A stretch of 64,000 bases of DNA from Nitrospirota bacterium. Lineage in GTDB: Bacteria > Nitrospirota > UBA9217. Below are positions 7,823-53,197 of the stretch, one piece after another (the stretch's first letter is position 1; each line of letters opens with the position of its first letter). The position numbers and the translations under genes are program-made. Under the pieces are notes generated by a model. It was not told the DNA's origin, ran no database searches, and saw only the letters and a program-made list of their open reading frames with translations. The DNA is taken from positions 509,022-573,021 of the forward strand of contig CAWIYV010000007.1 in NCBI GenBank assembly GCA_963840455.1. The letters are read 5' to 3'.

Positions 7823-8887
7823 TCATGATCCCTGTCTCCGTGCAGAAACCGCTAGCAGTGACCTCTCCACCGCCTCAAGCGCCTCGGCCGTATTGATCCG
7901 GTCCATGCACTGGTGATCAACGCACTTGTGCGGTTTGCAGGGATGGCATGCGAGGTATTTCGAAACGATTGCATGACCGCTTCCCCAGGGGCCCCATTTA
8001 CGCTCGTCAGTCGGGCCGAACAGCGCCACGACCGGAACGCCCGCCGCTGCAGCCATGTGCATGGGCCCCGAGTCGACACCGAAGAAGAGATCGCAGGCGC
8101 GGTAGACCGCAATGTTCTCGCGCACCGACGTGATCCCGCAGAGATTAAGCCCGCCGAAGGGCCCCTGTTGCTCGATCTCCTCATAGAGACGGGAATCTCC
8201 TTTCGCGCCAGTATAGACGAACCGGGCCCGGTGTTTTTCCCTGAGCTCGCGCATGATCGTCGCGAACCGATCGAGAGGCCACTGCTTTGCCGCAAGGCTT
8301 GCGGCAGCATGAATGACGACCTTCAGGTCCCCCTGCTTCCAGCCGGCGCTTTCGAACAGCTCCGCAGCGCGTCGTTCCTGCTCCGGCGTTGTCCAGAGCT
8401 CAAGATCTGTTGATCCGATGGGAATATCGAGTGACCGCAGGCAGTCCAGGAAGTTCTCCACCTCGTGCTGGTCATGGCGATAGACCACCGGGTCGGTGAG
8501 CAGGAACTGCCGTCCTTCCGTGGCGAATCCGATCCTGCGCGGGACCCGGGCCGCCCAGACCAGGAGCGCGCTCGAGAGCGACCGTTTGAGCACGAACACC
8601 GCGTCGTACCGCTCCCTGCGGATCAGGGAACCGTAGTGGATGTACGCGCCAAGCCTGCCCCGGTCCGACCGGGTGCTGTATTTGTGGATGGTCTTCAGCT
8701 CGAAAGGAATGATGCGGTCAACATACGGACATCCCTCGATCACCTGACCGGAAAAAGGCTCGAGCATCAGATCGATCCGGGCATCGGGAAAAGCTGCCCG
8801 CAGATTTCTGAGGAACGGCACAGTGAGCACCGTGTCACCAATGAACCGGTAGCGCATGACCAGGATCTTCTTGGCTTCGAGCTTCAT
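7823..8887 (-). CDS. GT9 LPS heptosyltransferase (WaaF/WaaQ-like)
   Basis: IGDTVLTVP, KQWP, DSGPMHMAAA, LFGPT. Confidence 0.9.
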   Translation of the reverse strand: MKLEAKKILVMRYRFIGDTVLTVPFLRNLRAAFPDARIDLMLEPFSGQVIEGCPYVDRIIPFELKTIHKYSTRSDRGRLGAYIHYGSLIRRERYDAVFVLKRSLSSALLVWAARVPRRIGFATEGRQFLLTDPVVYRHDQHEVENFLDCLRSLDIPIGSTDLELWTTPEQERRAAELFESAGWKQGDLKVVIHAAASLAAKQWPLDRFATIMRELREKHRARFVYTGAKGDSRLYEEIEQQGPFGGLNLCGITSVRENIAVYRACDLFFGVDSGPMHMAAAAGVPVVALFGPTDERKWGPWGSGHAIVSKYLACHPCKPHKCVDHQCMDRINTAEALEAVERSLLAVSARRQGS

Positions 8888-39887: not shown

Positions 39888-39918
39888 ATAAAAAGAGTGG
39901 GCAAGTTGCTGCCCACTC
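39888..39918 (-). promoter_or_regulatory. rimP leader terminator hairpin (attenuator)
   Basis: gagtgggc-agcaactt-gcccactc-ttttt just upstream of rimP; matches the known rimP-leader type. Confidence 0.8.
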
Positions 39919-39946
39919 CCAGAAAGTTTCTCCAGAGTGATGGTGC

Positions 39947-39975
39947 TTTTTAACACACTACCTGACGAATTGCAA
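39947..39975 (-). promoter_or_regulatory. sigma70 promoter of rimP-nusA-infB operon
   Basis: TTGCAA-17-TAAAAA with upstream TG. Confidence 0.55.
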
Positions 39976-40149
39976 GCGTTTTTTCGGCCTGTTACTAAGG
40001 GTTGCTATGGAATGTGTGACCCTAAGGGTTGTGTGCCGAGTGATCGAGCACGGATAGGTGACTGATTCATGGTCCAGACGAGACCCTTGAGAAACGGTTT
40101 CAACAGGAGAACTGTGTTCTCACTTGAGAGCTTTTTCATAGGTGACTCC

Positions 40150-40206
40150 TTACACGGAAGAGTCTGTCATCTTCTGCGAGGTGGCGAGATGATCGTTGTG
40201 GATCAT
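40150..40206 (-). pseudogene. truncated orphan RHS core stub (MIHNDHLATSQKMTDSSV*)
   Basis: Homologous to HNDHLGTPQKMTDASG of the main RHS gene. Confidence 0.75.
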
Positions 40207-40331
40207 CGCGTATTTCAAGTTCCGTCAGCGGAAGAATTCCCCTGCAGACAAGAGAACTTCGAGGTTTCACCTACCGGTACGACACCCCAGCGATTTGGCC
40301 TCTTTTTTCAATGAACGTACGTGTAGTTGGA
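40189..40331. repeat. RHS-junction conserved element, copy B
   Basis: Ungapped ~80% identity (112/140 by manual count) to 44041-44180; begins with palindrome atgatc-gttgtg-gatcat. Confidence 0.85.
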
Positions 40332-40454
40332 CATTGTCCTAGCACTATGAGCAGATAAATGAATGCTGCTCTTATATTCTCCCCCGGATTTCCCACTAGT
40401 TATGTTGATATATTGGATAACCAGATAGTTTTGAAGAGCTTTTACTTCTACATC

Positions 40455-40509
40455 ACCGCCCTACAACCGCCCTACTAGTGCCCTCCTAGTACCCTCCTAG
40501 TTCCAGCCG
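40455..40509. repeat. degenerate 11-bp tandem repeat (5 units)
   Basis: accgccctaca accgccctact agtgccctcct agtaccctcct agttccagccg. Confidence 0.6.
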
Positions 40510-40519
40510 AATGTAACCG

Positions 40520-40851
40520 CTACGCCGCCTTTTTAATCTTCGCAGATCTCGCAGACCTTTTGGATGGCTCGATCGTCAGTTTCAGGCCCATGGAGTCCAA
40601 TAACGTAAAGATGCTTTTGATCTCGGGCTTCCCCTTCTTTGAAAGCATCCGGTACATGCTCTTTCTGTTCAATTGCGCCTCTGGGATACCGCTGACATAC
40701 CACCATGTGCTTCCGCGACATTCCTCAGCGCAAGGAGGAACAGAGCCCAGTCGCCATTCTCCATCGCTGCATTGAGATAGGCGACCGCTTCCCGGGGATC
40801 TTTCAGGGATTCAATGAGGTCTTCCTGATAGGTTGTCGTTTTCCTAGCCAT
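40520..40851 (-). pseudogene. addiction-module antidote (HI1420-like HTH), frameshifted
   Basis: YLNAA...LLALRNVAEAHGGM, frameshift near 40680, then AQLNRKSMYRMLSKKGKPEIKS...GLKL; no cognate toxin seen. Confidence 0.8.
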
Positions 40852-40911
40852 GGGGACTTCTCTTTCTGTGATTCACAGAACAGAGGTGTAATTGAAACTC
40901 CGTCATGTATC

Positions 40912-41289
40912 TCAGGCCGCTTCCTTGACTTTGCGGTAGGGTTGAATCAAGACTTCCGCCGGTATGCCTATCCCTTTATGCAGATTGCGAATCATCTCCA
41001 TCGTGAGCGCCCGCTTTCGATTAAGCACTTCCGAAACTCGCGCACGGCTTCCAAGATATTTTTCCAGGTCCCGACGAGTCAGCCCCCTACTCTCCATGTA
41101 ATACTGAATGGCATCGATGGGATTGGGAAGAGGTACGGCATGATGTTTTTCTTCATAGGCGCTTATCAGCACCGTCAGCACCTCAAGACGATCGCCATCA
41201 GCGGTGCCAGCTTTGGCATCAAAAAGGCGCTCGATTTCCTTTAGTGCAGTTTCGTAGTCTTTTTTTGTTTTTATGGGTTTGATCTCCAT
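40912..41289 (-). CDS. higA: HigA-family antitoxin (HTH)
   Basis: IKPIKT..DY, YEEKH, SEVLNRKRALT..MIR.LH. Confidence 0.9.
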   Translation of the reverse strand: MEIKPIKTKKDYETALKEIERLFDAKAGTADGDRLEVLTVLISAYEEKHHAVPLPNPIDAIQYYMESRGLTRRDLEKYLGSRARVSEVLNRKRALTMEMIRNLHKGIGIPAEVLIQPYRKVKEAA

Positions 41290-41300
41290 AATCCCTCCGT

Positions 41301-41594
41301 TTATACGTTTCTGGCGTCAATCGCATCGTAATCCTTATGCGTACCGACAAAGCGGATAAACACTATGCCAAAAGCATATTGAACTGCAGCTACAAGCCGG
41401 TATTTATTCCCCTTGATGTTGAATACTACCCTGTTTTGTGCAAGGAAACTAGCATTCCGATAAACCGCTTTGATATCTGCCGGACTCCTCCAGTTCGCAT
41501 GTCTGACGTCATGATACCATGCCTGCAGCGGCTGCGCAGCATCAGGATGTTTCTCCCAGAATTCTCTCAGTGTTTTTCGCGATATGATACGCAC
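41301..41594 (-). CDS. higB: HigB-family mRNA interferase toxin
   Basis: MRIISRKTLREFW, VVFNIKGNKYRL, FVGTH..YD. Confidence 0.93.
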   Translation of the reverse strand: MRIISRKTLREFWEKHPDAAQPLQAWYHDVRHANWRSPADIKAVYRNASFLAQNRVVFNIKGNKYRLVAAVQYAFGIVFIRFVGTHKDYDAIDARNV

Positions 41595-41599
41595 AGCAG

Positions 41600-41628
41600 A
41601 TTATACATCGCTCCCGCATTGGGAGCAA
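41600..41628 (-). promoter_or_regulatory. higBA promoter with palindromic operator
   Basis: TTGCTC-17-TATAAT, 5 nt before the GTG start; gctccc-N5-gggagc palindrome at 41610-41626. Confidence 0.7.
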
Positions 41629-41815
41629 GTAAAAAATAGGGTGAGGTGAGGGGCCAAAGACAACCGACCCTGGCGGCGGTTCAGCCGGGTGGAGCCTTCC
41701 GCCGCCGATGCGTGAGCAGATCGAGCGGATTCTCGATGCGTTCCCGGGAAGCGAGAAGGCGAAGAAGACGGGATAATAAAGAGCCTTCCGATTGCGCTAC
41801 TCGCAACAGCAGAGT

Positions 41816-42304
41816 TTATAAATTACTCATGTTAAACTTGTAGATGGTTTTTTCCCAGGCTTCATCTGGAAATTCTCCGTGACGAACCACGCGTTCACTT
41901 AAAAGATTGTTCCTAAACTCAAGCATGGCTGAGTACGAGGTGGCCGCATCCCCACCGGCAAGAATAACGACGAAGCTTTCCTTTTCCTTACGAGATTCAA
42001 TTTTTACTGTCCTCGGATTCCCAAGATCAGCGAAAGCGGAAAGTGGCACAAAAAGTGACTTGCCGAAAGCCTTAATCGTTACTGAACCAATAATGGTGCG
42101 AGGACAAGCGTTTTCAGCGCCCCATCGCCATGAAGATGCAGCATCGCAAGGTTGTGATTTCGGCAATGATTTAACAAAAACCTTTACGCTTACCTGACCC
42201 AATTCAGTGGAAATCTCTTTATCATAAACTGCAGCAGGCGCACTAAAGCTCGAAAAACTGCCCAATAAAATAATAGCAACAGAATATAGTATCATTTTTA
42301 GCAT
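41816..42304 (-). CDS. secreted protein, putative immunity protein of the Tlde1-like toxin
   Basis: Signal peptide; overlaps toxin stop codon; low GC. Confidence 0.7.
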   Translation of the reverse strand: MLKMILYSVAIILLGSFSSFSAPAAVYDKEISTELGQVSVKVFVKSLPKSQPCDAASSWRWGAENACPRTIIGSVTIKAFGKSLFVPLSAFADLGNPRTVKIESRKEKESFVVILAGGDAATSYSAMLEFRNNLLSERVVRHGEFPDEAWEKTIYKFNMSNL

Positions 42305-42720
42305 GTCACCACATCCACGGTTTCGCCAGCTGGAATTCGTGTTCTATTCGGCGGAAGAATTATACAGCCTTCGGAAGCGTCATTACGTGAATTGTTTCCA
42401 TGAGCTCGGAAACTGTCGCACTGACGTGGCATATCGTGACAATGATTCCCCTCCAAGGGAGTAAGAGGAATTGTGTTTCGACCAGTGTTAGGACTGTCAT
42501 ATGGAGAACCCCATTGCCAAGAGCCCTGCGGAATGGGTCCGGTATCTGGAACATCCTGCATATTGGGATTATTCCTGCCTTCACCAGTTCCGGAATAACC
42601 CTGCTCGTTATAATATTGTTCCCCCGTCTGATCGTTGACACAAGTCATTTGTCCCGTATTTTGGCAGTAGGTACACCGCAAACCGAGTAGATCTATATAC
42701 TTTAGTGGATTATTTAGCAC
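42298..42720 (-). pseudogene. 3' part of orphan RHS module with Tlde1/DUF2778-like toxin domain
   Basis: NNPLKYIDLLGL RHS end motif, then GYSG..GRNNP, GPIPQG.W, HG...ASEGC; separated from its 5' part by IS30. Confidence 0.82.
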
Positions 42721-43785
42721 CGCAAGTTCAATTGTGAAGTGCAACACTTGGGTAAGCAGGAAGGAATCTGCTATCCTAAGTGGCCATGTCAAAAACCTAT
42801 GTTCATCTTACCGAAACAGAGCGTGAGCTCATAGCATCAATGCATTGGGAGGGCAAAGGCCCTTCCGAGATTGCCCGGGTACTCAGCCGGGATAAGGGCA
42901 CGATCTCACGGGAGCTTATACGTAACGCTTCCCCGGAGTATAGCTGTTACACGCCCTGCCGGGCACAGAAACGATCAGATCAGAGGAAACTGACAGCCCG
43001 TCATGATAGGCCGCTGCTCAAGAGCAAAAAGATTCAGCAGTACGTCCGGCGAAAGCTTAAGATCAACTGGTCCCCGGAGATCATTGCTGGTTGTCTCAAG
43101 GAAGAGATTCCCGGCCTGTCGATCAGCCCTGAGGCGATCTACCAGTTTATCTATCACCGGGATACCCCAGATCGAGAGCACCTCATCTCCCAGCTCTGTC
43201 GCGCCTACCGGAAACGGCGCATCAAGGGAAAAGGGAGAAAAGTACGAAAAACCAAGATTCCCAATAGGGTTTCCATTGATGCCAGGCCAAAGTCGGTCGA
43301 TCAGCGAAAGCAATTTGGCCATTGGGAAAGCGATACGCTGGTCTCCCGCAAGAGTAAGTCTGCCTTGCACAGCATAATCGAGCGCAAGACCCGGATCCTC
43401 CGGCTTTCCAAGCTGGAACGCAAGACCGCTGCCGAAACCAATAAGGCGGTCGCTCGAGCGCTCAAGAAGTTGCCCGTGGAGGCAAAACGGACGCTTACCA
43501 TGGACAACGGCACTGAGAATGCCAGGCACGAGGAGTTGTCAGCTACGCTTGGCATCAAATGCTACTTTGCCCATCCCTATGCGGCATGGCAACGAGGATC
43601 GAATGAACAGATCAACGGCCTCATCCGACGCTACTTGCCAAAGGGTACTGACTTCAGTAAAATTGACAAAGAGCAAATAAAGAAAATCGAGAAGCTCATC
43701 AACAACCGACCCAGAAAGTGCCTAGGCTTCAAAACACCGTTGGAAGTTGCTCGCTCACTTGTTGCACTTCAGAGTTGAATGTGGC
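42721..43785 (+). mobile_element. IS30-family insertion sequence (1065 bp)
   Basis: 26-bp imperfect TIRs sharing ttcaa.t.tgaagtgcaaca; 3-bp target duplication CAC at 42718-42720 and 43786-43788. Confidence 0.92.
42786..43778 (+). CDS. IS30-family transposase
   Basis: HTH (TISREL.RN), WSPE, GHWESDT, DNG.E, WQRGSNE..NGLIRRYLPKGT, RPRKCLGF.TP. Confidence 0.95.
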   Translation: MSKTYVHLTETERELIASMHWEGKGPSEIARVLSRDKGTISRELIRNASPEYSCYTPCRAQKRSDQRKLTARHDRPLLKSKKIQQYVRRKLKINWSPEIIAGCLKEEIPGLSISPEAIYQFIYHRDTPDREHLISQLCRAYRKRRIKGKGRKVRKTKIPNRVSIDARPKSVDQRKQFGHWESDTLVSRKSKSALHSIIERKTRILRLSKLERKTAAETNKAVARALKKLPVEAKRTLTMDNGTENARHEELSATLGIKCYFAHPYAAWQRGSNEQINGLIRRYLPKGTDFSKIDKEQIKKIEKLINNRPRKCLGFKTPLEVARSLVALQS

Positions 43786-44055
43786 CACGTAAATATATAG
43801 GTGATTCTTTCCTTTCCTAATTCCTATCGGATCGGCCTCGATGTACCGGCCTCTCGCAGGATTATAGTCTCTTCGATAGTTATAATGCAGCCCCGTCTCC
43901 GCATCATAGTACTGTCCGGGGAAACGGAAATTGTTCGTGATCGTTGATACGGTGACAGTCGCTTCCCCGAACGGTTTATAGTCCGCAGCCCACACGACGG
44001 CCCCTGAAGCATCCGTCATCTTCTGCGGTGCCCCTAAATGATCGTTGTGGATCAT
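43786..44055 (-). pseudogene. 5' part of orphan RHS module (RHS-associated core)
   Basis: MIHNDHLGAPQ...RFPGQYYDAETGLHYNY.RDYNP..GRY...DPIG...LYIYV; joins 42717 in frame if the IS is removed. Confidence 0.88.
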
Positions 44056-44180
44056 CGCGTATTTCGAGTTCGTTCAGCGGAAGAAATTCCCAGCAGCGAC
44101 GAGCACTTCAAGGCTGCACCTGCTGGTACGACTCCTCGACGATTTGGCACCTTTTTTCAAAGAGCATAGGCGTACTTGAA
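44038..44180. repeat. RHS-junction conserved element, copy A
   Basis: Homologous to 40189-40331; same palindromic core at 44038-44055. Confidence 0.85.
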
Positions 44181-44338
44181 ACTCTCCCCGCCGTCAGGAG
44201 ATGACGCGGTGGAAGGCTCCGGCGGACTCGATGCCGGCTAGCGCGGCATAGAGCGATGATAGACTACAGATTTAAGTCTGCCCCTAAAGGTCTCTCGTTT
44301 CTTAGGTGACTCCAGCCTTTACCTAAGATGTCTTTCCC

Positions 44339-44638
44339 CTAGAGTTTCCCAATTAATAGAAAATAAGAATATATTCCAATCAATATTATAAAAACGATTG
44401 CAAACAACAAGAATCCTAGCGGTGAAAAAATATTTAGAATTCTTGATGCCTTTGATTTAAATTCATTGCCACACTTCGGACATTTAACTACATTGAAGTT
44501 CTTCAGCTCTTTCATCATATTATCTAGTGCGGGCATAGGCCACATCTGTTCTTCCCGGGGAAGCTTAGAAAAAACAAACGCCCGATTTTTTTCAGGATCA
44601 AAGGTATTGTTACAATTAGCACAGGATATTCTTTTCAC
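44339..44638 (-). CDS. putative immunity protein: two CxxC (zinc ribbon) plus C-terminal TM helix
   Basis: CANC, CPKC, hydrophobic C-terminus; starts 2 nt after the RHS stop; low GC. Confidence 0.7.
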   Translation of the reverse strand: MKRISCANCNNTFDPEKNRAFVFSKLPREEQMWPMPALDNMMKELKNFNVVKCPKCGNEFKSKASRILNIFSPLGFLLFAIVFIILIGIYSYFLLIGKL

Positions 44639-44640
44639 GC

Positions 44641-47600
44641 CTAATACCTCCTTTTACAATATCCGCCTCCACCCGATGCCTCGATTCCAGCACCTGGTAT
44701 TGCACCAGCCGCAGTAAGACTACCACTTCCGCTTAATCCTAAACCGAGACCGGGTTCAGGCAATTGAAAAGGATTCGGATAGATAGCGCCATACCATGAC
44801 CAACCAAGTATTGCATCTTCTGCTGCTCGATTATTGCATCCGAAAGCCAAGCCAACGGGAGTACCTATACTTCCTCCAAGCCCTCCGCCTATATACGTAC
44901 ATGTCATCGTAATTGTGAACGATACGTTTGGCTTTCCAATACATGTTACTCTCAGAGTAGAACTCTTGACGCCTATCACAAAAAAGAATCCACCGTACTC
45001 TACACCTTCATAATGATATTTGCCCGAAGGACACTGGTCGCAATCGGTACATAAGCCCCGCAAATCATATTTACTAGTTGGCGCATTAGCAGAGTATGTA
45101 TATATATTGATACCGCCATACAATCCTATAGGATCGGCCTCGATATACTTTCCGATGATTGGATTATAGTCTCTATAGTAATTGTGATTCAGATTAGTCT
45201 CAGCATCGAAGTACTGCCCTGGGAATCTCATGTTATTGGAGAGGGTATTAGTGGTGATGTTGACTTCACCGAAAGGTTTATAATCCGCTGCCCATACTAC
45301 TACACCGGAAGCATCCGTCATCTTCTGCGGGGTACCTAAATGATCGTTGTGGTAATAGTATGTGCTTGCCCCCTCCATCTTCGCCAGCGGCTGGCCATTC
45401 AAGTATACATATTCCGCGGTGACAGTTCCAGCGCTAGTCGACTCTGCAATGATCTGTCCGTTAAGGCTGTAATGGAAGATCGTCACCGTGCCGTTCACAT
45501 TCTTCTTCACCCGCTGGCCGTTGCCGTTGTATGAGTAGTTCGCGGTCATCGCTCCGTCTGCTACCTGGATCAGCCGCTGGTTCTGATTGTACGTATAGAT
45601 CCGTGCGCTTTGTGTCGTGGTGTTGCCGTTGTTGTCATAGCCAAATGAGATGCCGTTCGCGCTCGTGAGCTTGTTCGTATTCGGCGCGTAGGTGTAGGAA
45701 TTCCCATTCTCCGTCAGCCTGCTCCCTACCCCGTCATAGGTCCATCCCAGGCTGCCCCATATCCCGGAAGCAGTCCCTGTCGAGAGCCGGTCGAGAGCAT
45801 CGTAGGTGAACGACTTGTTCTTCGCGGGATCGAGCAGGTCCTGGATGGCCTGGATGTTGCCGTTGTTGTCATACGTTAGATAGCTCAGGCTCATGACAGC
45901 ACCGGCGGTGATGCCGGTGATGCGGTACTGGCTGTCGTAGCCTACCGTGCTGGAAAGGCCGTTGCCGTACGTGACGGTCGACATACCGCCGAAGGGCTTG
46001 TAAGCTATGTTCGTGGCCAGGTTGGCGGCGCCATTCAAGACTGATACTGCTCGGTCGTTGGTGTAGTTATAGGTGATGACCTTTCCCGACGGATAGGTCA
46101 TGGTCTTCATGTTGCCGTTCTGGTCGTAAGTGTACTGATTGATGTACGTATGGCTGTCGATGATCTTGGTTTCCTTTTTCACCTGGCCCTTGGGGGAGTA
46201 TTCGTAGCTCGTCGTGCCCGAGGCGTCGGCCATGCTGCAAAGCCGGCCCTTGCCGTTTACGCAGGTGTCGTAGGTGTAAATAGTATCAGTATCCCCCGGG
46301 AAGTCGATCTTCGTCAGCCGATTGAGCGCATCATAGACGTAAGAGATCGTGACACCCTTCGCATCGGTCTTGGTGATGAGGTTACCTGCCGGGTCGTAGG
46401 CATAGGTGGTCGTTCCGGTGTCCGGTGAGATGACCTGGTAGACCCTTCCCTTGTCGTCATAGACGTACGTAGTAGTATTGAGTATTCGCATCAGTGACCG
46501 AGGTCAAGTTGTTGTTTGAATTGTATCCGTAGCCGGTATTGATACTCCCCGGCTGGCTGACCGCGGTGAGCCTGTTCAACGCATCATAGGCGTAGTTCGT
46601 CGTGTTTCCCTTCGGGTCCTTGGCACTCTTCCTACTCCCCGATGCATAATAGGAGTATTCCGTATAGTTCGAATCAGGGTTCGTGATGTGATACAGCCGG
46701 TTCAAGGCGTCATAGCTAAAGCTTAGGCTCTTCTCGAGGCTGCCGGAGCTGTCCTTGATCTGCTCGGTGAGCTTGTTCCCTTCGGAGTCATAGGTGTAGT
46801 TGATCGTGTTGCCAAGGCTGTCGCTGATGGAGGTCAGGTTGCCCATACCATCGTCATAGTGGTAGGTGATCGTGTTTCCCTCCGGCAGGGTGATATGGTC
46901 GATCTTGCCATTACCGGTGCAGGAGGAGCCGCAGCTTCCTGCGACGTAGAAGTACTGCGTTGCGTTTATATCGCCCGGGGCTTTGACCGTGGCGACCCGG
47001 CCGTTCGTATCATACGTATATGTCGTGCTGTTCCCGTTCGGGTCGGTCACGGTCTGGGGATTGCCGAGGTTGTCGAAGTTCGAGTAGGTCGTCGCGCCGA
47101 TAAGCGGCTGGGTCATGGTCAAGAGGTAACCGGTCGCTGCATCGTAATTGTACGTGGTTACATCGGAGACGTCGGTCCGGGGGCCGTCCACAGTCGCGAG
47201 TTTGCCGTTGGCTCCGTATGTATAGGTGGTCGTGTAGGTGTAGGGGTTGCCGTTACCGAGAAGCCCGGTCTCGGTGGTTGTCAGAAGGTTTCCCTTTACA
47301 TCGTCGTAGGTGTTGGTGATGACGCGGTCCTCGGCCGGGTTTACGACACTCTGGACCGTCTCGAGTAAGGACGCCGTTGAAGACCGGATGATACGTATAG
47401 GTCGTGGTCTTTTCTACTACCGTTCCAAGGGCCTCGGTCTTGGTGAGCATATTGCCTTTGCCGTCGTAGGCGTAGGCCGTGGTCGTCGTGACGCCGGTCA
47501 CGATGTCCCTATGACCTTCCGCAAGTATCCAGGCATTGCCGTCCCTTATGTAGGTCGTAACATTCCCGAAGGTGTCGGTGACCTTGGCTGGCTGACCGAG

Positions 47601-48702
47601 GGTGTCGAATTCCACGGTCCGGGTCTGGGTCAGGGGGCCGTTCGGGCCGCCGACGATCGCTGTCGTCATTACGGTCTTCTTGTATTGGGTGACGTAATCG
47701 AAGGTGATGGTGCCGCTGCCGTGGGTCTGGCGGATCACCCGGCCCTGATGAGTCATAGGCATTGACGTACGCGCCGTTGCCTTCGTCGATGCTGGTGAGG
47801 AGATGTTTGTTGTTTGAGTCGGTGTAGTCATAGATTGAGTTCGTGCTCGGGCCGGCTGCAGATTTGAGATTACCGATGCCGTCGTGGGTGTAAGCTACCG
47901 TCCGGCCGGCGCTGTCTACGATGTCGGTGAGTCTGCCGGTTGAGCTATCGTAATGAAATAGGACGTAATGGTTAGTCAAGTTGCCTGCAGCGTCCTTTTC
48001 CTCTATCCTGCTCAGTCGGTAGTCATAGGCGACGATGAGCGGGGTGGTCTGGCTAATATTCGCCGGAAGAATGCCCCAGAGGGGGGAGCGGCTGTCGAGC
48101 TCATAGTACAGGGCAAGGGAGTTGCCATTGGTGTCTATCCGGGAGATCAGGCGCCCCCGGGTGTCATAGTAGTCCTTCTCACCGCTCTTATAGGCATAGG
48201 TAAGGCTGCCGTCTGCGTTCTGGACGAGGGTGCCGGTCTCGCCGATGGGGGTGATATAGTTGCCGCCGGCAACGGTAAAGCGACGCTTCCAGCCGCATTC
48301 TTTCCGAAGGGTGACGGAGCCATCCGGATAGGTGTAGATACGGCGATCATAGTTGATGGCCCAGCCGAAGCCCACCGGGCTGTCGTAGGCAGTACGGCTG
48401 TCGTAGCGTCGGCTGACGGAGATCGGGAAGAGGCTGCCGATGGTGAGATCGGTGTGCACATAGTTCTCGGCGCCAACAAAAAGGCTTATGGGCTTGCCAC
48501 CGATACCCGGGTTATTGCCGTGCATGTCAGGCGATGGGGCATCTGCGCAGGCACCAACGTCATCAGTCAAAAGACTCACGCCAGGACGCTGTACGCCACC
48601 CGAGCTATGCTGCGCATCGGATGGTGCAGCATCGGTGCGTGAAAGCTGCAACGCACCTAGAAGTAGGAATGAAATCGATGTAATTCTTATCAACCTGCGC
48701 AT
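44641..48702 (-). CDS. RHS/YD-repeat polymorphic toxin with signal peptide and DUF6531-like domain; three apparent +1 frameshifts
   Basis: ORF pieces 47509-48702, 47253-47831, 46457-47191 and 44641-46491 join after removing single bases near 47748, 47363 and 46483; YD repeats, RFPGQY, DLRGL cleavage motif. Confidence 0.88.
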
Positions 48703-49694: not shown

Positions 49695-50321
49695 TCAATA
49701 GCTGACGTACACCAGACCCCGCCGTATTGCCTGTTTATTGTTGGCGTCCACGGCCCTGATCTTCACCGTATGATAGCCTTCTTCTCTCATCAGCAACGTC
49801 TTGCTTGTCGGATCGGAGCTGTCCAAACCCTTCCACTCCACTTCCTGCTGGACGTTGGCCTGCCGCATTGGATCGCCCTGCTGATCGGCGAACACCGTCG
49901 TTTCGACGCCGGAAGGAGAGGTGACCGTTACGGTCACCCGGTGCTCCTTCGATACGGTGTATCGGATACGAGCAGGCTGTCCGTATGACAGATGCATGGC
50001 ACGCGGGTCGATCTCGAGCTGGGTGATCTGGGGAGCATCGCCCGTTACAATGATGACATTGTCGTTCATGAGCCGCGCTGCCGAGCACCTGACAGAGCCG
50101 CCGCTCGAAAGGAACGCACCATTAGGCAGCCATCCATCCCAGGTGTACTGGTATGTTCCCGCGGCATAGGCTTTCTCGCTCACGATCGTTTGATACACAT
50201 TGTCTGAAGGCCCCGCAGAGACCGCGAAAAGATCGACCCGTACCGGTCGTGCAAGGGTAAGCGTCACGACCATGGGGTCGTTCGAGTAGGGATCAAACAG
50301 ATCGTTCAGGCAGCTGCTCAC
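49695..50321 (-). CDS. FlgD-Ig-like domain segment, probably the frameshifted C-terminus of the upstream surface protein
   Basis: AGTYQYTWDG and VEWKG...EGYHTV motifs; overlaps upstream ORF end. Confidence 0.65.
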   Translation of the reverse strand: MSSCLNDLFDPYSNDPMVVTLTLARPVRVDLFAVSAGPSDNVYQTIVSEKAYAAGTYQYTWDGWLPNGAFLSSGGSVRCSAARLMNDNVIIVTGDAPQITQLEIDPRAMHLSYGQPARIRYTVSKEHRVTVTVTSPSGVETTVFADQQGDPMRQANVQQEVEWKGLDSSDPTSKTLLMREEGYHTVKIRAVDANNKQAIRRGLVYVSY

Positions 50322-53197
50322 AGTGGCCGTTTGATTGATCGGGAACGGAGGGCTATAGGATGTTGCTCGTGCCTCCGGGAAACAGCATCCAGCTTATAAA
50401 GATAGCCGTCATCTGGTAAGAAGGCGCCGCTGCTGTTCCTGCCGTCCCAAGAAAATACTCCTGGTCCGGCTGCGTCCTGCGTTGCGGTCTGCGTAAATAC
50501 AGGCGATCCCGAAGGGCCGTACTGGTCCTGGTAGATCTTGAGCGTCATGGTGGCGGGGCCGTTTATCGTGTAAAAAATGTTCGTTGAATCTGAATTAGCT
50601 GTATTGATCGTCTCAGTGCTGGCACCGACGCCGGAAATCGTCAGGGGGGCGTTCGTATTAACGGCAAAATTGGTTTCAGCGAAACCGACATTTCCCGCAG
50701 CGTCCGTTGCTTCTACACGAATGACATGGGACGCATTGGTCAGTGCATCGAGGCTGTTTCCCGAAACTTTCGACACGGGGTTCCCATCGACCTTCACCTG
50801 CACGGAAGTGATCGTTCCGGCATCGGCTGTCGTATATGTCAGCAGCGGCGTATTGTCTCTGGTCGTTATATTCGTGGGGGAAGTGATTATAACCATCGGA
50901 GCAGTCGTATCGACAGTGAAGCTCGTCTCGGCAAAACCGGTATTCCCCGCGCTATCCGTTGCCTCTACTCTTACGGTATGTGTGCCCTGGGATACCAACC
51001 CAAGAGTGTCCCCCGAAATCTTGGCAACAACCGTCCCATCTACCATCACCACGACTGTACCCTCGGAGGCTGTATAGTTAAGAAGCCGCACCGCACTGTA
51101 TGTTGCTCCCGACACAGGCGATGAGATCGTGACTACGGGCAAAGACGAGTCGAGCGAAATCGCGCTGCTGCAGGGCACCGGCATCCAGTTACCCTCATTG
51201 TCCATGAATCTTGCGGAAACCGTTTTTGTCCCCTCGCCTGCGCTTAATGTCCAGCTTTTCGATGTTGCATAGGGCTCCGCGGTCAACCATGTCGATCCGT
51301 CGTTGCTGAACTGCATCTGGGCCACTCCGCTGCCGAAATCCGTAGCAGTAAGGCTCAATGTCACGACAGCATTGTTCGTTGCAGCCGCCCCGCCGTTGAT
51401 CACGACCGAACCCGTCGGCGGTGTTATATCGGCAAAGCTCGCGTTTATCGTATGGTTCGCGGTCACATTGCTGAATGTGTAGCTCGTAATGGCCCCGACT
51501 GATGCTCCATCGACAATCACATCGGAGATCGAATAGCCGGTGTTCGGCGTTATCGTAAAAGTCTGGCTTGAAGCAAAGTCAACGGATATCGTACCTGACG
51601 GCGACAGCGTCCCTCCGGCAGTCGCCGATCCGCCTATGGAATACGTATCGACTGAGAAGCTCGCATTGATTGTATGGTTCGTGGTTACGTTCGTAAAGGC
51701 ATAGGTGCTCACGGCCCCAACAGAGGCGCCGTCGACCTGCACGTCGGAGACATGATAGCCGGCATTGGGCGTGATCGTGAACGTCGTCGTGGCCCCGGAA
51801 TTGAGGATCACGGTACCCAGGGGAGATATTGTGCCGTTCGCGCCGGCTGTGGCGGTAACGGAGTATGTGTTGATCGCAAAACTCGTGATGATCGTGTGGG
51901 GTCCAGTCACATTCGAAAACGTGTAGGAGGTCACCGCTCCGACCGATGCCCCGTCAACTAGCACGTCGCTGACATGATAACCTTCATTCGGGGTGATCGT
52001 GAAGGTCTGGTTCATGCCCTGTGTTGCGTTGACCGTCCCTGAAGGGGCAATAGAACCATTCGCATTTGCCGTGGCCGTGATGACATAGATATTTGAAAAG
52101 CTTGCTGATATCGTGTGGGGCCCAGTCACATTCGAAAACGTGTAGGTGGTCACCGCTCCGACCGATGCGCCGTCAACAAGCACGTCGCTGACATGATAGC
52201 CGGCATTGGGCGTGATCGTGAAGGTCTGGTTGGCACCCACGGTGACAGCGACAGCGCCGTTCGGCGATATCGCTCCGTTCGCTCCGGCACTTGCCGTAAT
52301 GGTGACGGTGTTGACGGAAAAGGTTGCGGAGATCGTGTGGTTTGCAGTGATATTATTGAACGTGTACGAGGTGACTGCCCCGGCGGATGTACCGTCCACC
52401 GTCACATTCCCCACCTTGTATCCGGCGTTCGGGGTCATGGTGAACGTCTGATTTGCTCCGTTCGCTACGGCGACGGTGCCGTTCGGGGAGATCGAGCCGT
52501 TCGCTCCTGTTGATGCGGCGACCGTGCGAATGGTCTGGTTGGCAACGCTGGAATAGGCGGAATAGTTTTTGCCGTCGTACGCCCGCGCTCGATAGTAGTA
52601 CGCGGTGCCAACGGTAAGGCCGGTGTTGGAATACACCGTCACATTCGCGCCAAGTGTGGCGATCACCGTCCAGGAACTGGACCCGTTCGGGGATCGCTCA
52701 ACGTAGTAATTGCTCTCATAGGCCGTGTTGTCCGTCCAGGAGAGGTTGATCTGCGACGATGATGCCACGCTTGCGGTCAACGCGGTGGGTGCGGCAAGCG
52801 TGGCCGTTGTGGCATTGGCCGTGTTCGAGTAGCTGGAATAGGTACTTCCGGCCTTGCAGCGTACCCTGTAGTAGTATCTCGTGTTCTGCGTCAGGCCGGT
52901 GTTCTGGTAACTGGTGATGTTCGCACCAAGGGTGGCGACGACCGTCCAGGAGCTCGACCCATTCGGCGAACGCTCGACGTAGTAGTTAGCCTCGTTCGTG
53001 GCGTTGTCCGTCCAGGCGAGGTTGATCTGCTTTGACGATGCCATGGTTGCGGTCAGGTTCGTTGGCGCGGGAGGCGCAGCTGCCCAAGCCGGTTCGGTCA
53101 AAAACAGGCCAAGTAGGGCGAAGGCAATGAAGAGTGACGGAACCAATGAACGGAGTAAGATAAATACAGTGGTTCCCGAAACAGGATGTTCACGCAT
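50318..53197 (-). CDS. large secreted surface protein: 2x FN3, 5x InlB B-repeat-like, Ig-like and FlgD-Ig domains
   Basis: Signal peptide AWA; P.NL.A..INL.W.D...YYYRV repeats; G.I.P.G...TFTITPN.GY.V.DV.VDG repeats; WDGRN. Confidence 0.85.
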   Translation of the reverse strand: MREHPVSGTTVFILLRSLVPSLFIAFALLGLFLTEPAWAAAPPAPTNLTATMASSKQINLAWTDNATNEANYYVERSPNGSSSWTVVATLGANITSYQNTGLTQNTRYYYRVRCKAGSTYSSYSNTANATTATLAAPTALTASVASSSQINLSWTDNTAYESNYYVERSPNGSSSWTVIATLGANVTVYSNTGLTVGTAYYYRARAYDGKNYSAYSSVANQTIRTVAASTGANGSISPNGTVAVANGANQTFTMTPNAGYKVGNVTVDGTSAGAVTSYTFNNITANHTISATFSVNTVTITASAGANGAISPNGAVAVTVGANQTFTITPNAGYHVSDVLVDGASVGAVTTYTFSNVTGPHTISASFSNIYVITATANANGSIAPSGTVNATQGMNQTFTITPNEGYHVSDVLVDGASVGAVTSYTFSNVTGPHTIITSFAINTYSVTATAGANGTISPLGTVILNSGATTTFTITPNAGYHVSDVQVDGASVGAVSTYAFTNVTTNHTINASFSVDTYSIGGSATAGGTLSPSGTISVDFASSQTFTITPNTGYSISDVIVDGASVGAITSYTFSNVTANHTINASFADITPPTGSVVINGGAAATNNAVVTLSLTATDFGSGVAQMQFSNDGSTWLTAEPYATSKSWTLSAGEGTKTVSARFMDNEGNWMPVPCSSAISLDSSLPVVTISSPVSGATYSAVRLLNYTASEGTVVVMVDGTVVAKISGDTLGLVSQGTHTVRVEATDSAGNTGFAETSFTVDTTAPMVIITSPTNITTRDNTPLLTYTTADAGTITSVQVKVDGNPVSKVSGNSLDALTNASHVIRVEATDAAGNVGFAETNFAVNTNAPLTISGVGASTETINTANSDSTNIFYTINGPATMTLKIYQDQYGPSGSPVFTQTATQDAAGPGVFSWDGRNSSGAFLPDDGYLYKLDAVSRRHEQHPIALRSRSIKRPL

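Follow-up and report, generated by a model that had tools for sequence, protein, structure and literature searches.

The 64,000-nucleotide (nt) stretch of Nitrospirota DNA analysed here (the window; contig CAWIYV010000007.1, positions 509,022 to 573,021) carries a full-length rhs gene, followed on the same strand by two orphan RHS modules, A and B. Both orphans begin at the same base of the RHS core end, within its HNDHL codons, directly behind a conserved non-coding element of about 130 nt that we call the arm. The arrangement reaches beyond the genome of the window: one Nitrospirota family has, in four further genomes, at least 15 orphan tips built in this way. We favour, at roughly an even chance, the reading that the arm is an adaptor which closes a toxin-immunity cassette on its 3′ side and provides a promoter, a leader and a start codon, and that homologous recombination shuffles the cassettes, with the invariant junction block as its focus. 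The features on which the argument turns are the following.

44641..48573, minus strand: full-length rhs gene, broken into four or more reading frames, with Pfam RHS_repeat and RHS matches
44641-46491, minus strand: last rhs piece, which encodes the present toxin tip as well as RHS repeats and the core end (PF03527)
45340..45357, minus strand: main-gene junction, TAT TAC / CAC AAC GAT CAT (Y Y / H N D H); orphan homology begins at CAC
44050..44185, minus strand: arm A, conserved and non-coding, ending in ATGATC (nhmmer E=6e-22 and alignment)
44038..44055, unstranded: junction palindrome A, ATGATC-GTTGTG-GATCAT
43786..44055, minus strand: 5′ part of orphan A, from MIHNDHL... to DPIG (PF03527 core end, Pfam E=1.8e-13)
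40201..40335, minus strand: arm B, the second copy (nhmmer E=4e-19; 78% identity to arm A)
40189..40206, unstranded: junction palindrome B, ATGATC-GTTGTG-GATCAT, extending to 9/10 bases
40150..40206, minus strand: orphan B, an RHS core-end remnant of 17 codons (MIHNDHLATSQKMTDSSV), then a stop

Orphan A shows the order of an Rhs orphan module, with a core-end fragment, a variable toxin and a small open reading frame (ORF), downstream of the full-length rhs gene and on its strand. On the minus strand, the junction of both orphans reads ATG ATC CAC AAC GAT CAT and opens the frame M I H N D H L. In the main gene, the plus strand at 45340-45357 is ATGATC-GTTGTG-GTAATA. Alignment places the departure of both orphans from the main gene at one base, directly 5′ of CAC. 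The initial annotation of this DNA had described the common breakpoint within the HNDHL codons, both palindromes with the 9/10 extension in copy B, and the in-frame ATG (MIHNDHL), and all of these, with their coordinates, proved correct. It had also put the gap-free conservation of the arm at about 80% over about 130 nt; BLASTN within the same genome gave 78% identity over 123 ungapped nt between arms A and B, and found no third arm copy in the 4.03 Mb of this genome. ATGATC-N6-GATCAT occurs there twice, both times at this locus, and the version with arms of 5 base pairs (bp), TGATC-N6-GATCA, seven times. GATC itself is counted 30,975 times in this genome (G000), about twice the expectation from base composition. 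Since the two window arms are homologous copies, palindromes A and B should be taken as one observation and not as two.

We searched the junction motif in 64 genomes of the family and ran BLAST with the junction region in relatives; these junction-conditioned searches were complemented by searches with the arm only. G021 has six tandem orphans, G056 has three and G016 has two, and each of them shows [A/T/C]TGATC/CAC..GATCAT and an alignable arm. A tblastn survey of this RHS subfamily in the family yielded 38 distinct tips: 15 of the arm type, 13 with long upstream frames and 10 arm-less orphans. The arm-type tips keep no core codons upstream of HNDHL and break at one base in 15 of 15 cases, unlike Rhs orphans with their variable breakpoints. 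Over one genome per species (185,579 species), the junction pattern gave 36 stretches; RHS sequences occurred only among the Nitrospirota ones, the rest being chance matches in unrelated genes. Metagenome contigs were scanned with a second pattern holding no arm bases beyond TGATC. This gave 48 matches, 41 of them RHS-type, and an arm-profile match ending at most 12 nt from CAC was present in 37 of the 41. The four others comprise one with only 25 nt upstream, one with a rearranged arm (L103) and two sharing only the last 20-40 nt. In L103 (3600-3730), the proximal ~75 nt of the arm is inverted in place beside an intact ATGATC/CAC, either a real inversion or an assembly artefact. The counts in both samples, 15/15 and 37/41, agree with the expectation of the initial annotation that the arm would abut HNDHL-coding rhs sequence at the same base in relatives.

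BLAST with the arm against 401 Nitrospirota genomes matched 8 of the 63 other family members and gave three chance-level matches in 337 genomes outside the family. The arm is thus found in other family genomes and in metagenomes, which does not fit one old duplication confined to the window. Every full-length match of an arm-only nhmmer profile precedes the same junction, and the full-length arms newly found (G059, L133) also adjoin [A/T/C]TGATC/CACACAGATCAT. Two decayed copies stand in the same register (ACAATC/TTTAAC and ATGATC/TACACC), one copy has TTGATT/CAC, in which the synonymous ATT breaks the palindrome, and three arms among the matches of the arm-only searches are truncated. One copy lies elsewhere: in G016:C6 (L141, 3164-3864), an arm without the palindrome is fused in frame to another rhs position (..TFDDKGRVYQ..). 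The rhs core fragment of L141 begins ..TFDDKGRVYQVISPD.., about 375 codons upstream of HNDHL, and an ATG within the arm opens a frame of 196 amino acids (aa).

The 10 arm-less orphans keep 8, 10, 50, 61, 67, 103, 123, 144, 165 or 199 core codons. Varying breakpoints, which the initial annotation had named as evidence against its exchange system, are thus a property of the arm-less orphans and of none of the arm-type tips, showing that ordinary variable-breakpoint displacement coexists with the fixed-junction type in this family. One arm-less orphan (L030, G016:C10, about 8700-8745) has only ..PYYY before HNDHL and is preceded by TTGACA-N17-TACTAT, as judged by eye; the -10-like hexamer is formed by its Tyr codons. 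The array of G021 (L028, G021:C2) consists of six arm-type cassettes in tandem, with toxin-antitoxin and mglA-like genes upstream. No full-length rhs gene adjoins it, the sole full-length subfamily rhs gene found in G021 being on another contig, so that the position downstream of a full-length rhs gene seen in the window is not shared by this array.

The arm is non-coding, has no conserved fold and is under selective constraint. Its mean column entropy is 0.89 bit, compared with 1.54 at the four-fold sites of the adjacent first 31 codons and 1.23 in the region just upstream, and the alignment of 42 arm copies contains hardly any indels. By codon position, entropy is 0.86/0.97/0.77 in the arm and 1.11/0.98/0.91 in its distal part, compared with 0.41/0.30/1.10 in the adjacent core end. 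We considered the arm as a protein-coding N-terminal extension, its frame being often open back to 'MLCAEDRIDTGFFPYEPGSPDAM', but stops occur in about one third of the copies and three-base periodicity is lacking. An origin as decayed RHS core, suggested by the distal 'YTYDL*' reading, is not supported: the arm profile has no match upstream of HNDHL or in the 5′ region of the main gene. Known RNA was rejected as well, an Rfam search of 39900-45500 returning a single chance-level small RNA (sRNA) match elsewhere, and so was structured RNA, because RNAalifold on the 42 copies found no covariation and no structure apart from the invariant 5-bp stem TGATC/GATCA.

It is very unlikely that the arm is a neutral hitch-hiker, the functionless DNA of one old fusion, copied along with cassette duplication. 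Such DNA would be homologous in all copies, as the arms are; it could also be as diverged within genomes as between them (average likeness 67% within one genome, 64% between genomes; 73-87% on one contig) and decayed as in the window. But the arm is more conserved than the neighbouring four-fold sites and almost free of indels, and a start codon is kept at the junction in 48 of 49 non-redundant copies (ATG 27, TTG 19, CTG 2, ACA 1). An alternative that we regard as quite unlikely takes the arm as a cis-regulatory leader, working through an upstream short ORF or through protein or sRNA binding, which gates the displaced toxin-immunity pairs, the position of the junction being incidental to recombination. 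Besides the constraint on the arm and its conserved blocks GAAAAA, CATAA-AGTATG and GGAAG, this reading can call on the TATG at -118 from the junction, conserved in at least 90%, and on a 13-codon small ORF at about -118 to -79 (about 44129-44167 in arm A; for instance MILRKNVEKRVES; consensus M-I/T-L/F-x-K-N/S-V-E-K-R-x-x-S) that is intact in 23 of the 49 arms. The small ORF is, however, broken or altered in the other 26, including both window copies, which lack its start or stop pattern, and neither the aperiodic distal arm nor the lack of a conserved structure or Rfam family speaks for such a leader.

The codon that follows the junction start is ATC in 48 of the 49 copies and ATT in one. 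The conserved inverted repeat is limited to TGATC/GATCA, 5 bp on each side of a 6-bp spacer, the sixth base varying between A, T and C. Its right half, GATCAT, is an Asp-His codon pair, which 21 of the 23 arm-less RHS tips in this subfamily also have, and its left half is a start codon and an Ile codon. The palindromic core of the initial annotation is therefore real as a 6-6-6 palindrome at both window junctions, but only 5 bp of it are conserved in relatives and half of these belong to constrained codons. This bears on a dedicated site-specific exchange, in which a trans-acting recombinase would act at NTGATC-CACAAC-GATCAT, with strand exchange at or in the CACAAC spacer, and circular tip-immunity-arm cassettes would enter and leave at the HNDHL codons in an integron-like manner. 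We hold such an exchange to be possible but unlikely. A junction fixed in all arm-type copies is what it would produce. Yet no recurrent, independent cutting at one base has to be assumed: because all arms are homologous, a single ancestral fusion followed by unit duplication or homologous exchange suffices for a fixed junction. In tyrosine-recombinase cores, a spacer of 6-8 bp separates two inverted arms, each roughly 9-13 bp long, and the junction, with 5 conserved bp per side, falls short of core arms of the dif, lox or attB type; the copy with ATT breaks even this repeat. The arm joined to another rhs position without the core, and the arm-less orphans with their variable breakpoints in the same family, also count against a dedicated site.

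The complement of recombinases points the same way. The genome of the window (100% complete) has two intact PF00589 genes and four fragments, none of the PF00589 genes lying within the window, and no PF00239 (serine recombinase) gene. Both intact tyrosine recombinases are Xer-like, because close counterparts exist in all five genomes searched. The tyrosine recombinases beside the G016 array come from a family that G016 carries in many copies, and the window genome lacks them. In G059, the array (L133, G059:C22, 9467-17086) is interrupted by an inserted element with two adjacent tyrosine recombinases, an 863-aa protein resembling a DnaG/Toprim primase, an IS21-like pair and a PIN gene, and these recombinases are likewise absent from the window genome. 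No recombinase is common to the arrays of the five genomes searched, so that the co-occurring tyrosine recombinase suggested by the initial annotation was not found beside them. RNAalifold on the 42 arms showed no conserved imperfect hairpin of the attC type. Three loose dif patterns had no match in the genome, and a likeness of GGTGTCATAA..TATGTT to dif arms, seen by eye only, was dropped. An att site worked by a tyrosine recombinase, as first proposed, thus finds no support in the homologous arms, the 5-bp repeat, the missing attC-like fold and the two Xer-like genes.

To follow the exchanges themselves, all junction-anchored loci were compared pairwise by an anchored ungapped scan; the comparisons are partly non-independent and were taken from metagenome assemblies. 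In three pairs (L073/L074 and L089, L076 and L082, L095 and L112), the sequences are identical from 466 to 887 nt upstream, through the immunity gene and the arm, to +11. The break at +12 is the first site that differs between the allelic core-end forms (CTC GCC and TTA GGT). L092 and L113, and the group L094/L101/L109, show a similar pattern over shorter stretches, while the group L085/L091/L096/L104 breaks at +20 to +48. L086 and L097, two cassettes on one 28-kb contig, share -5..+142, and their arms differ upstream of that, starting at -6. In run X2, a contig of 202 nt is identical to window orphan A from 43903 to 44060 and then continues with a different arm type. Leaving out contig ends, ten tract ends were found between -200 and +250: seven at -11 to +12, one group at +36 to +48, and two at +142 and +243. 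None of the ten lies inside the arm. Three pairs extend far enough upstream to be informative, and in each of them the tip behind the junction differs but the arm remains linked to the immunity side before it. The moving unit is thus core end-toxin-immunity-arm, and the proposal of the initial annotation that these parts travel together stands. Chimeric joins, or crossovers hidden in identical arms, cannot explain all cases, because the arms are only 73-87% (contig) or 67% (genome) alike. A circle junction would look identical to a tandem junction in sequence. Taken as a whole, the exchange system of the initial annotation is partly supported, with the cassette unit and the junction-focused exchange retained and the att site and tyrosine recombinase left without support.

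According to the adaptor reading, a cassette would have the form HNDHL core end-toxin-immunity-(promoter)-leader of ~130 nt-NTG ATC. An incoming cassette would become the tip of rhs and push the previous tip downstream, directly behind the arm. From the arm, the displaced tip would then receive its promoter, its leader and a start codon in frame. In this way the toxin frame that was displaced would stay expressed, and so, most importantly, would its immunity gene, which is often translationally coupled. The identical junction would be inherited from one ancestral fusion and not re-made, and the units would spread by duplication and by homologous (RecA-type) exchange. As substrates, such exchange could use the rhs core on the left, and the arm with the conserved core end of ~240 nt on the right, with crossovers concentrated where perfect identity runs longest, in a block lying across the junction.

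That the promoter is active, the start codon used and the recombination pathway a general one is what we infer. The sigma-70-like promoter motif TTGAC[AT]-N17-T..[AG]AT is present in 28 of the 49 non-redundant copies, compared with 31 of 2000 control windows. It ends 130-136 nt before the junction in all 28 carriers, its spacer is always 17 nt, and a TG mostly stands two bases before the second hexamer. The closest relatives of the window arms, L072 and L090, carry it. Of 13 cassettes, 7 have a toxin stop that overlaps the start of the immunity gene, as does orphan A of the window; because of this overlap, translation of the displaced frame would help expression of the immunity gene.

Several observations weigh against the adaptor, and part of them would suit a site-specific exchange better. 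On the side of expression, 25 of the 28 carriers have TTTAAT or TTAAAT as second hexamer, hence no A at position 2, and three have TACAAT or TAGAAT. A stricter promoter scan of L109 did not list the upstream motif and instead listed TTGAAA-17-TAGTAT inside the arm, over its most conserved blocks. Arms A and B of the window lack the upstream motif, no convincing Shine-Dalgarno sequence was seen by eye before the NTG in the arm alignments, and no RNA run was among the 11 sequencing runs that share sequence with the stretch (each share 0.14 or less). A simple leader does not account for 130 nt that are length-invariant and constrained without a fold. On the side of recombination, the tract ends lie nearer to the junction than uniform crossing-over in 240 nt of homology predicts, and the low likeness of arms means that hidden crossovers are not the whole story. 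Finally, the 12-nt block CACAACGATCAT is nearly invariant at synonymous sites, also in arm-less tips and in the main genes of genomes without arms. Its neighbours vary in arm-less tips, namely the Tyr codons before and the Leu codon after it; in the rest of the core end, about three quarters of the Asp codons are GAC; and more distant RHS genes of the same family have GATCAT in only 3 of 13, their synonymous positions varying freely. The second codon of the junction block is lineage-specific and mostly common to the main gene and its orphans: G059 has CACACA in the main gene and all four orphans, and G056 has CACCCC in the main gene and CACACC or CACCCC in the orphans.

Clustered tract ends with none in the arm, linkage of the arm to the upstream cassette, a block held constant in main genes and orphans, and an arm constrained as protein-binding DNA might be, are all to be expected if exchange is site-specific. 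We keep that reading in consideration because the adaptor reading does not explain why tract ends cluster so tightly, why the 12-nt block hardly varies at synonymous sites in main genes, or why a leader without a fold is so constrained in length and sequence. In its most far-reaching form, which we also hold to be unlikely, the invariant block, about G.G.TGATC/CACAACGATCAT, would be a true recombination site at which a host enzyme acting in trans, such as the Xer pair or an unrecognised enzyme, moves tip-immunity-arm cassettes in frame. If true, this would be an integrase-less, in-frame, integron-like system for toxin tips that brings along expression signals for the displaced tip.

The window itself holds a decayed instance of the arrangement, with a frameshifted rhs gene, orphan A split by an insertion sequence, orphan B reduced to a stub, and arms without the upstream promoter motif. 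The features that complete the locus are these.

44339..44638, minus strand: putative immunity gene of the main tip, 99 aa, starting 2 nt past the rhs stop
42721..43785, plus strand: IS30-family insertion sequence inside orphan A, with a transposase at 42780-43778 (Pfam HTH_38 and rve)
42298..42720, minus strand: 3′ part of orphan A, with a Tlde1-family toxin domain (Pfam PF10908, E=2.8e-9)
41816..42304, minus strand: putative immunity gene of orphan A, 162 aa, with a hydrophobic N-terminus; its start overlaps the toxin stop
41656..41779, minus strand: conserved post-immunity spacer, the stretch matched by blastn (query 41640-41815)
40520..41594, minus strand: toxin-antitoxin genes between the spacer and arm B, comprising HigB (41301-41594), a HigA-like helix-turn-helix gene (40912-41289) and an addiction-module antidote (40520-40851)

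A tblastn comparison with an intact 1440-aa homologue over about 48573-45121 located frame shifts near 47745, 47361 and 46480, and the full-length rhs gene may thus be a pseudogene or may contain indel errors of assembly, at three places or more. The 99-aa ORF behind the main tip has weak, sub-threshold zinc-ribbon matches and visible CxxC pairs. The 162-aa ORF behind the toxin of orphan A, which would encode its immunity protein, had no match in Pfam. The IS30-family element sits between the DPIG core end and the Tlde1 toxin of orphan A, and contigs of other sequencing runs stop at its edges, 42721 and 43785. It is a widespread, multi-copy insertion sequence, because contigs of four soil, sediment and wetland runs cover it far better than the rest of the stretch, of which they hold mainly short rhs pieces. 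The post-immunity spacer matches the pre-arm spacers of G059, G016, G021, L071 and L103 (80-87% over 74-123 nt, and one weaker match of 76% over 68 nt; blastn). In other genomes it stands just upstream of the arm; in the window no arm follows directly. HigBA and the second antidote gene stand here between the spacer and arm B, as if toxin-antitoxin modules had been inserted, and the antidote frame (40520-40851) also spans two frames. The sequence past the stub of orphan B is unrelated to RHS and leads to the rimP-nusA operon. Upstream of rhs, at 50318-53197, lies a gene for a probable surface protein of 959 aa, which combines fibronectin-III domains with InlB B-repeat-like and Ig-like ones.

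Tip swapping in Rhs and other polymorphic toxins, and the expression of displaced immunity genes, have so far mostly been explained by unspecific homologous recombination. If the adaptor reading is true, the module being displaced gets its promoter, leader and start codon from the incoming cassette, and immunity would be kept to toxins that kin still make. The junction is in any case a short sequence at which recombination can be measured, site-specific against general, and a dedicated mechanism, if true, would be a new kind of cassette system.

Jackson et al. (2009) are said to have described Rhs orphan modules in Enterobacteria that arise by C-terminal displacement. Two further papers are also reported to deal with such modules (PMC3150448, PMC3967940). 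As in Enterobacteria, a full-length rhs gene is followed by same-strand fragments that carry a core end (PF03527, ...HxDHLG...DPxGL), a different toxin and an immunity gene; recombination within the core end, which fragments and main gene have in common, may exchange them. Unlike the enterobacterial orphans, the cassettes described here have no core codons upstream of HNDHL, break at one base and are preceded by a constrained non-coding element of ~130 nt. In Salmonella Typhimurium, internal P2 promoters and a CTG start express the C-terminal toxin region (Rhs-CT) and its immunity gene as modules resembling toxin-antitoxin pairs (PMC7043789). The likeness would lie in displaced and main tips expressed independently of the shell gene, in a conserved promoter upstream of the toxin and in non-ATG starts, all of which are predicted from sequence in our case. 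The Salmonella promoter is inside the rhs coding sequence, just before PxxxxDPxGL, whereas our candidate promoter and leader form a separate non-coding element upstream of HNDHL.

Integron cassette arrays are built by the integrase IntI from the sites attI and attC. With integrons, the arrays described here share uniform boundaries of tandem cassettes at a short core sequence, a new cassette at the head that pushes older ones back, and a conserved element at the 3′ end of each cassette. They differ in having no integrase at the array, no folded site of the attC type and an insertion in frame within coding sequence; in addition, their cassettes appear to carry their own candidate promoters. In the type VI secretion clusters of Vibrio cholerae, sequential displacement leaves arrays of old immunity genes, and the authors noted the likeness to integrons, found no integrase and described homologous recombination without specific sites (PMC5361080). 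Compared with those arrays, ours have a specific, invariant junction and a conserved element between cassettes to which the tract ends map. A literature search for a conserved inter-cassette element or a fixed junction in Rhs arrays, judged mostly from titles and listings, found no description. What is new with respect to Rhs orphan arrays is thus that each cassette ends, on its 3′ side, in a distinct non-coding element under constraint, joined in frame at a single invariant base.

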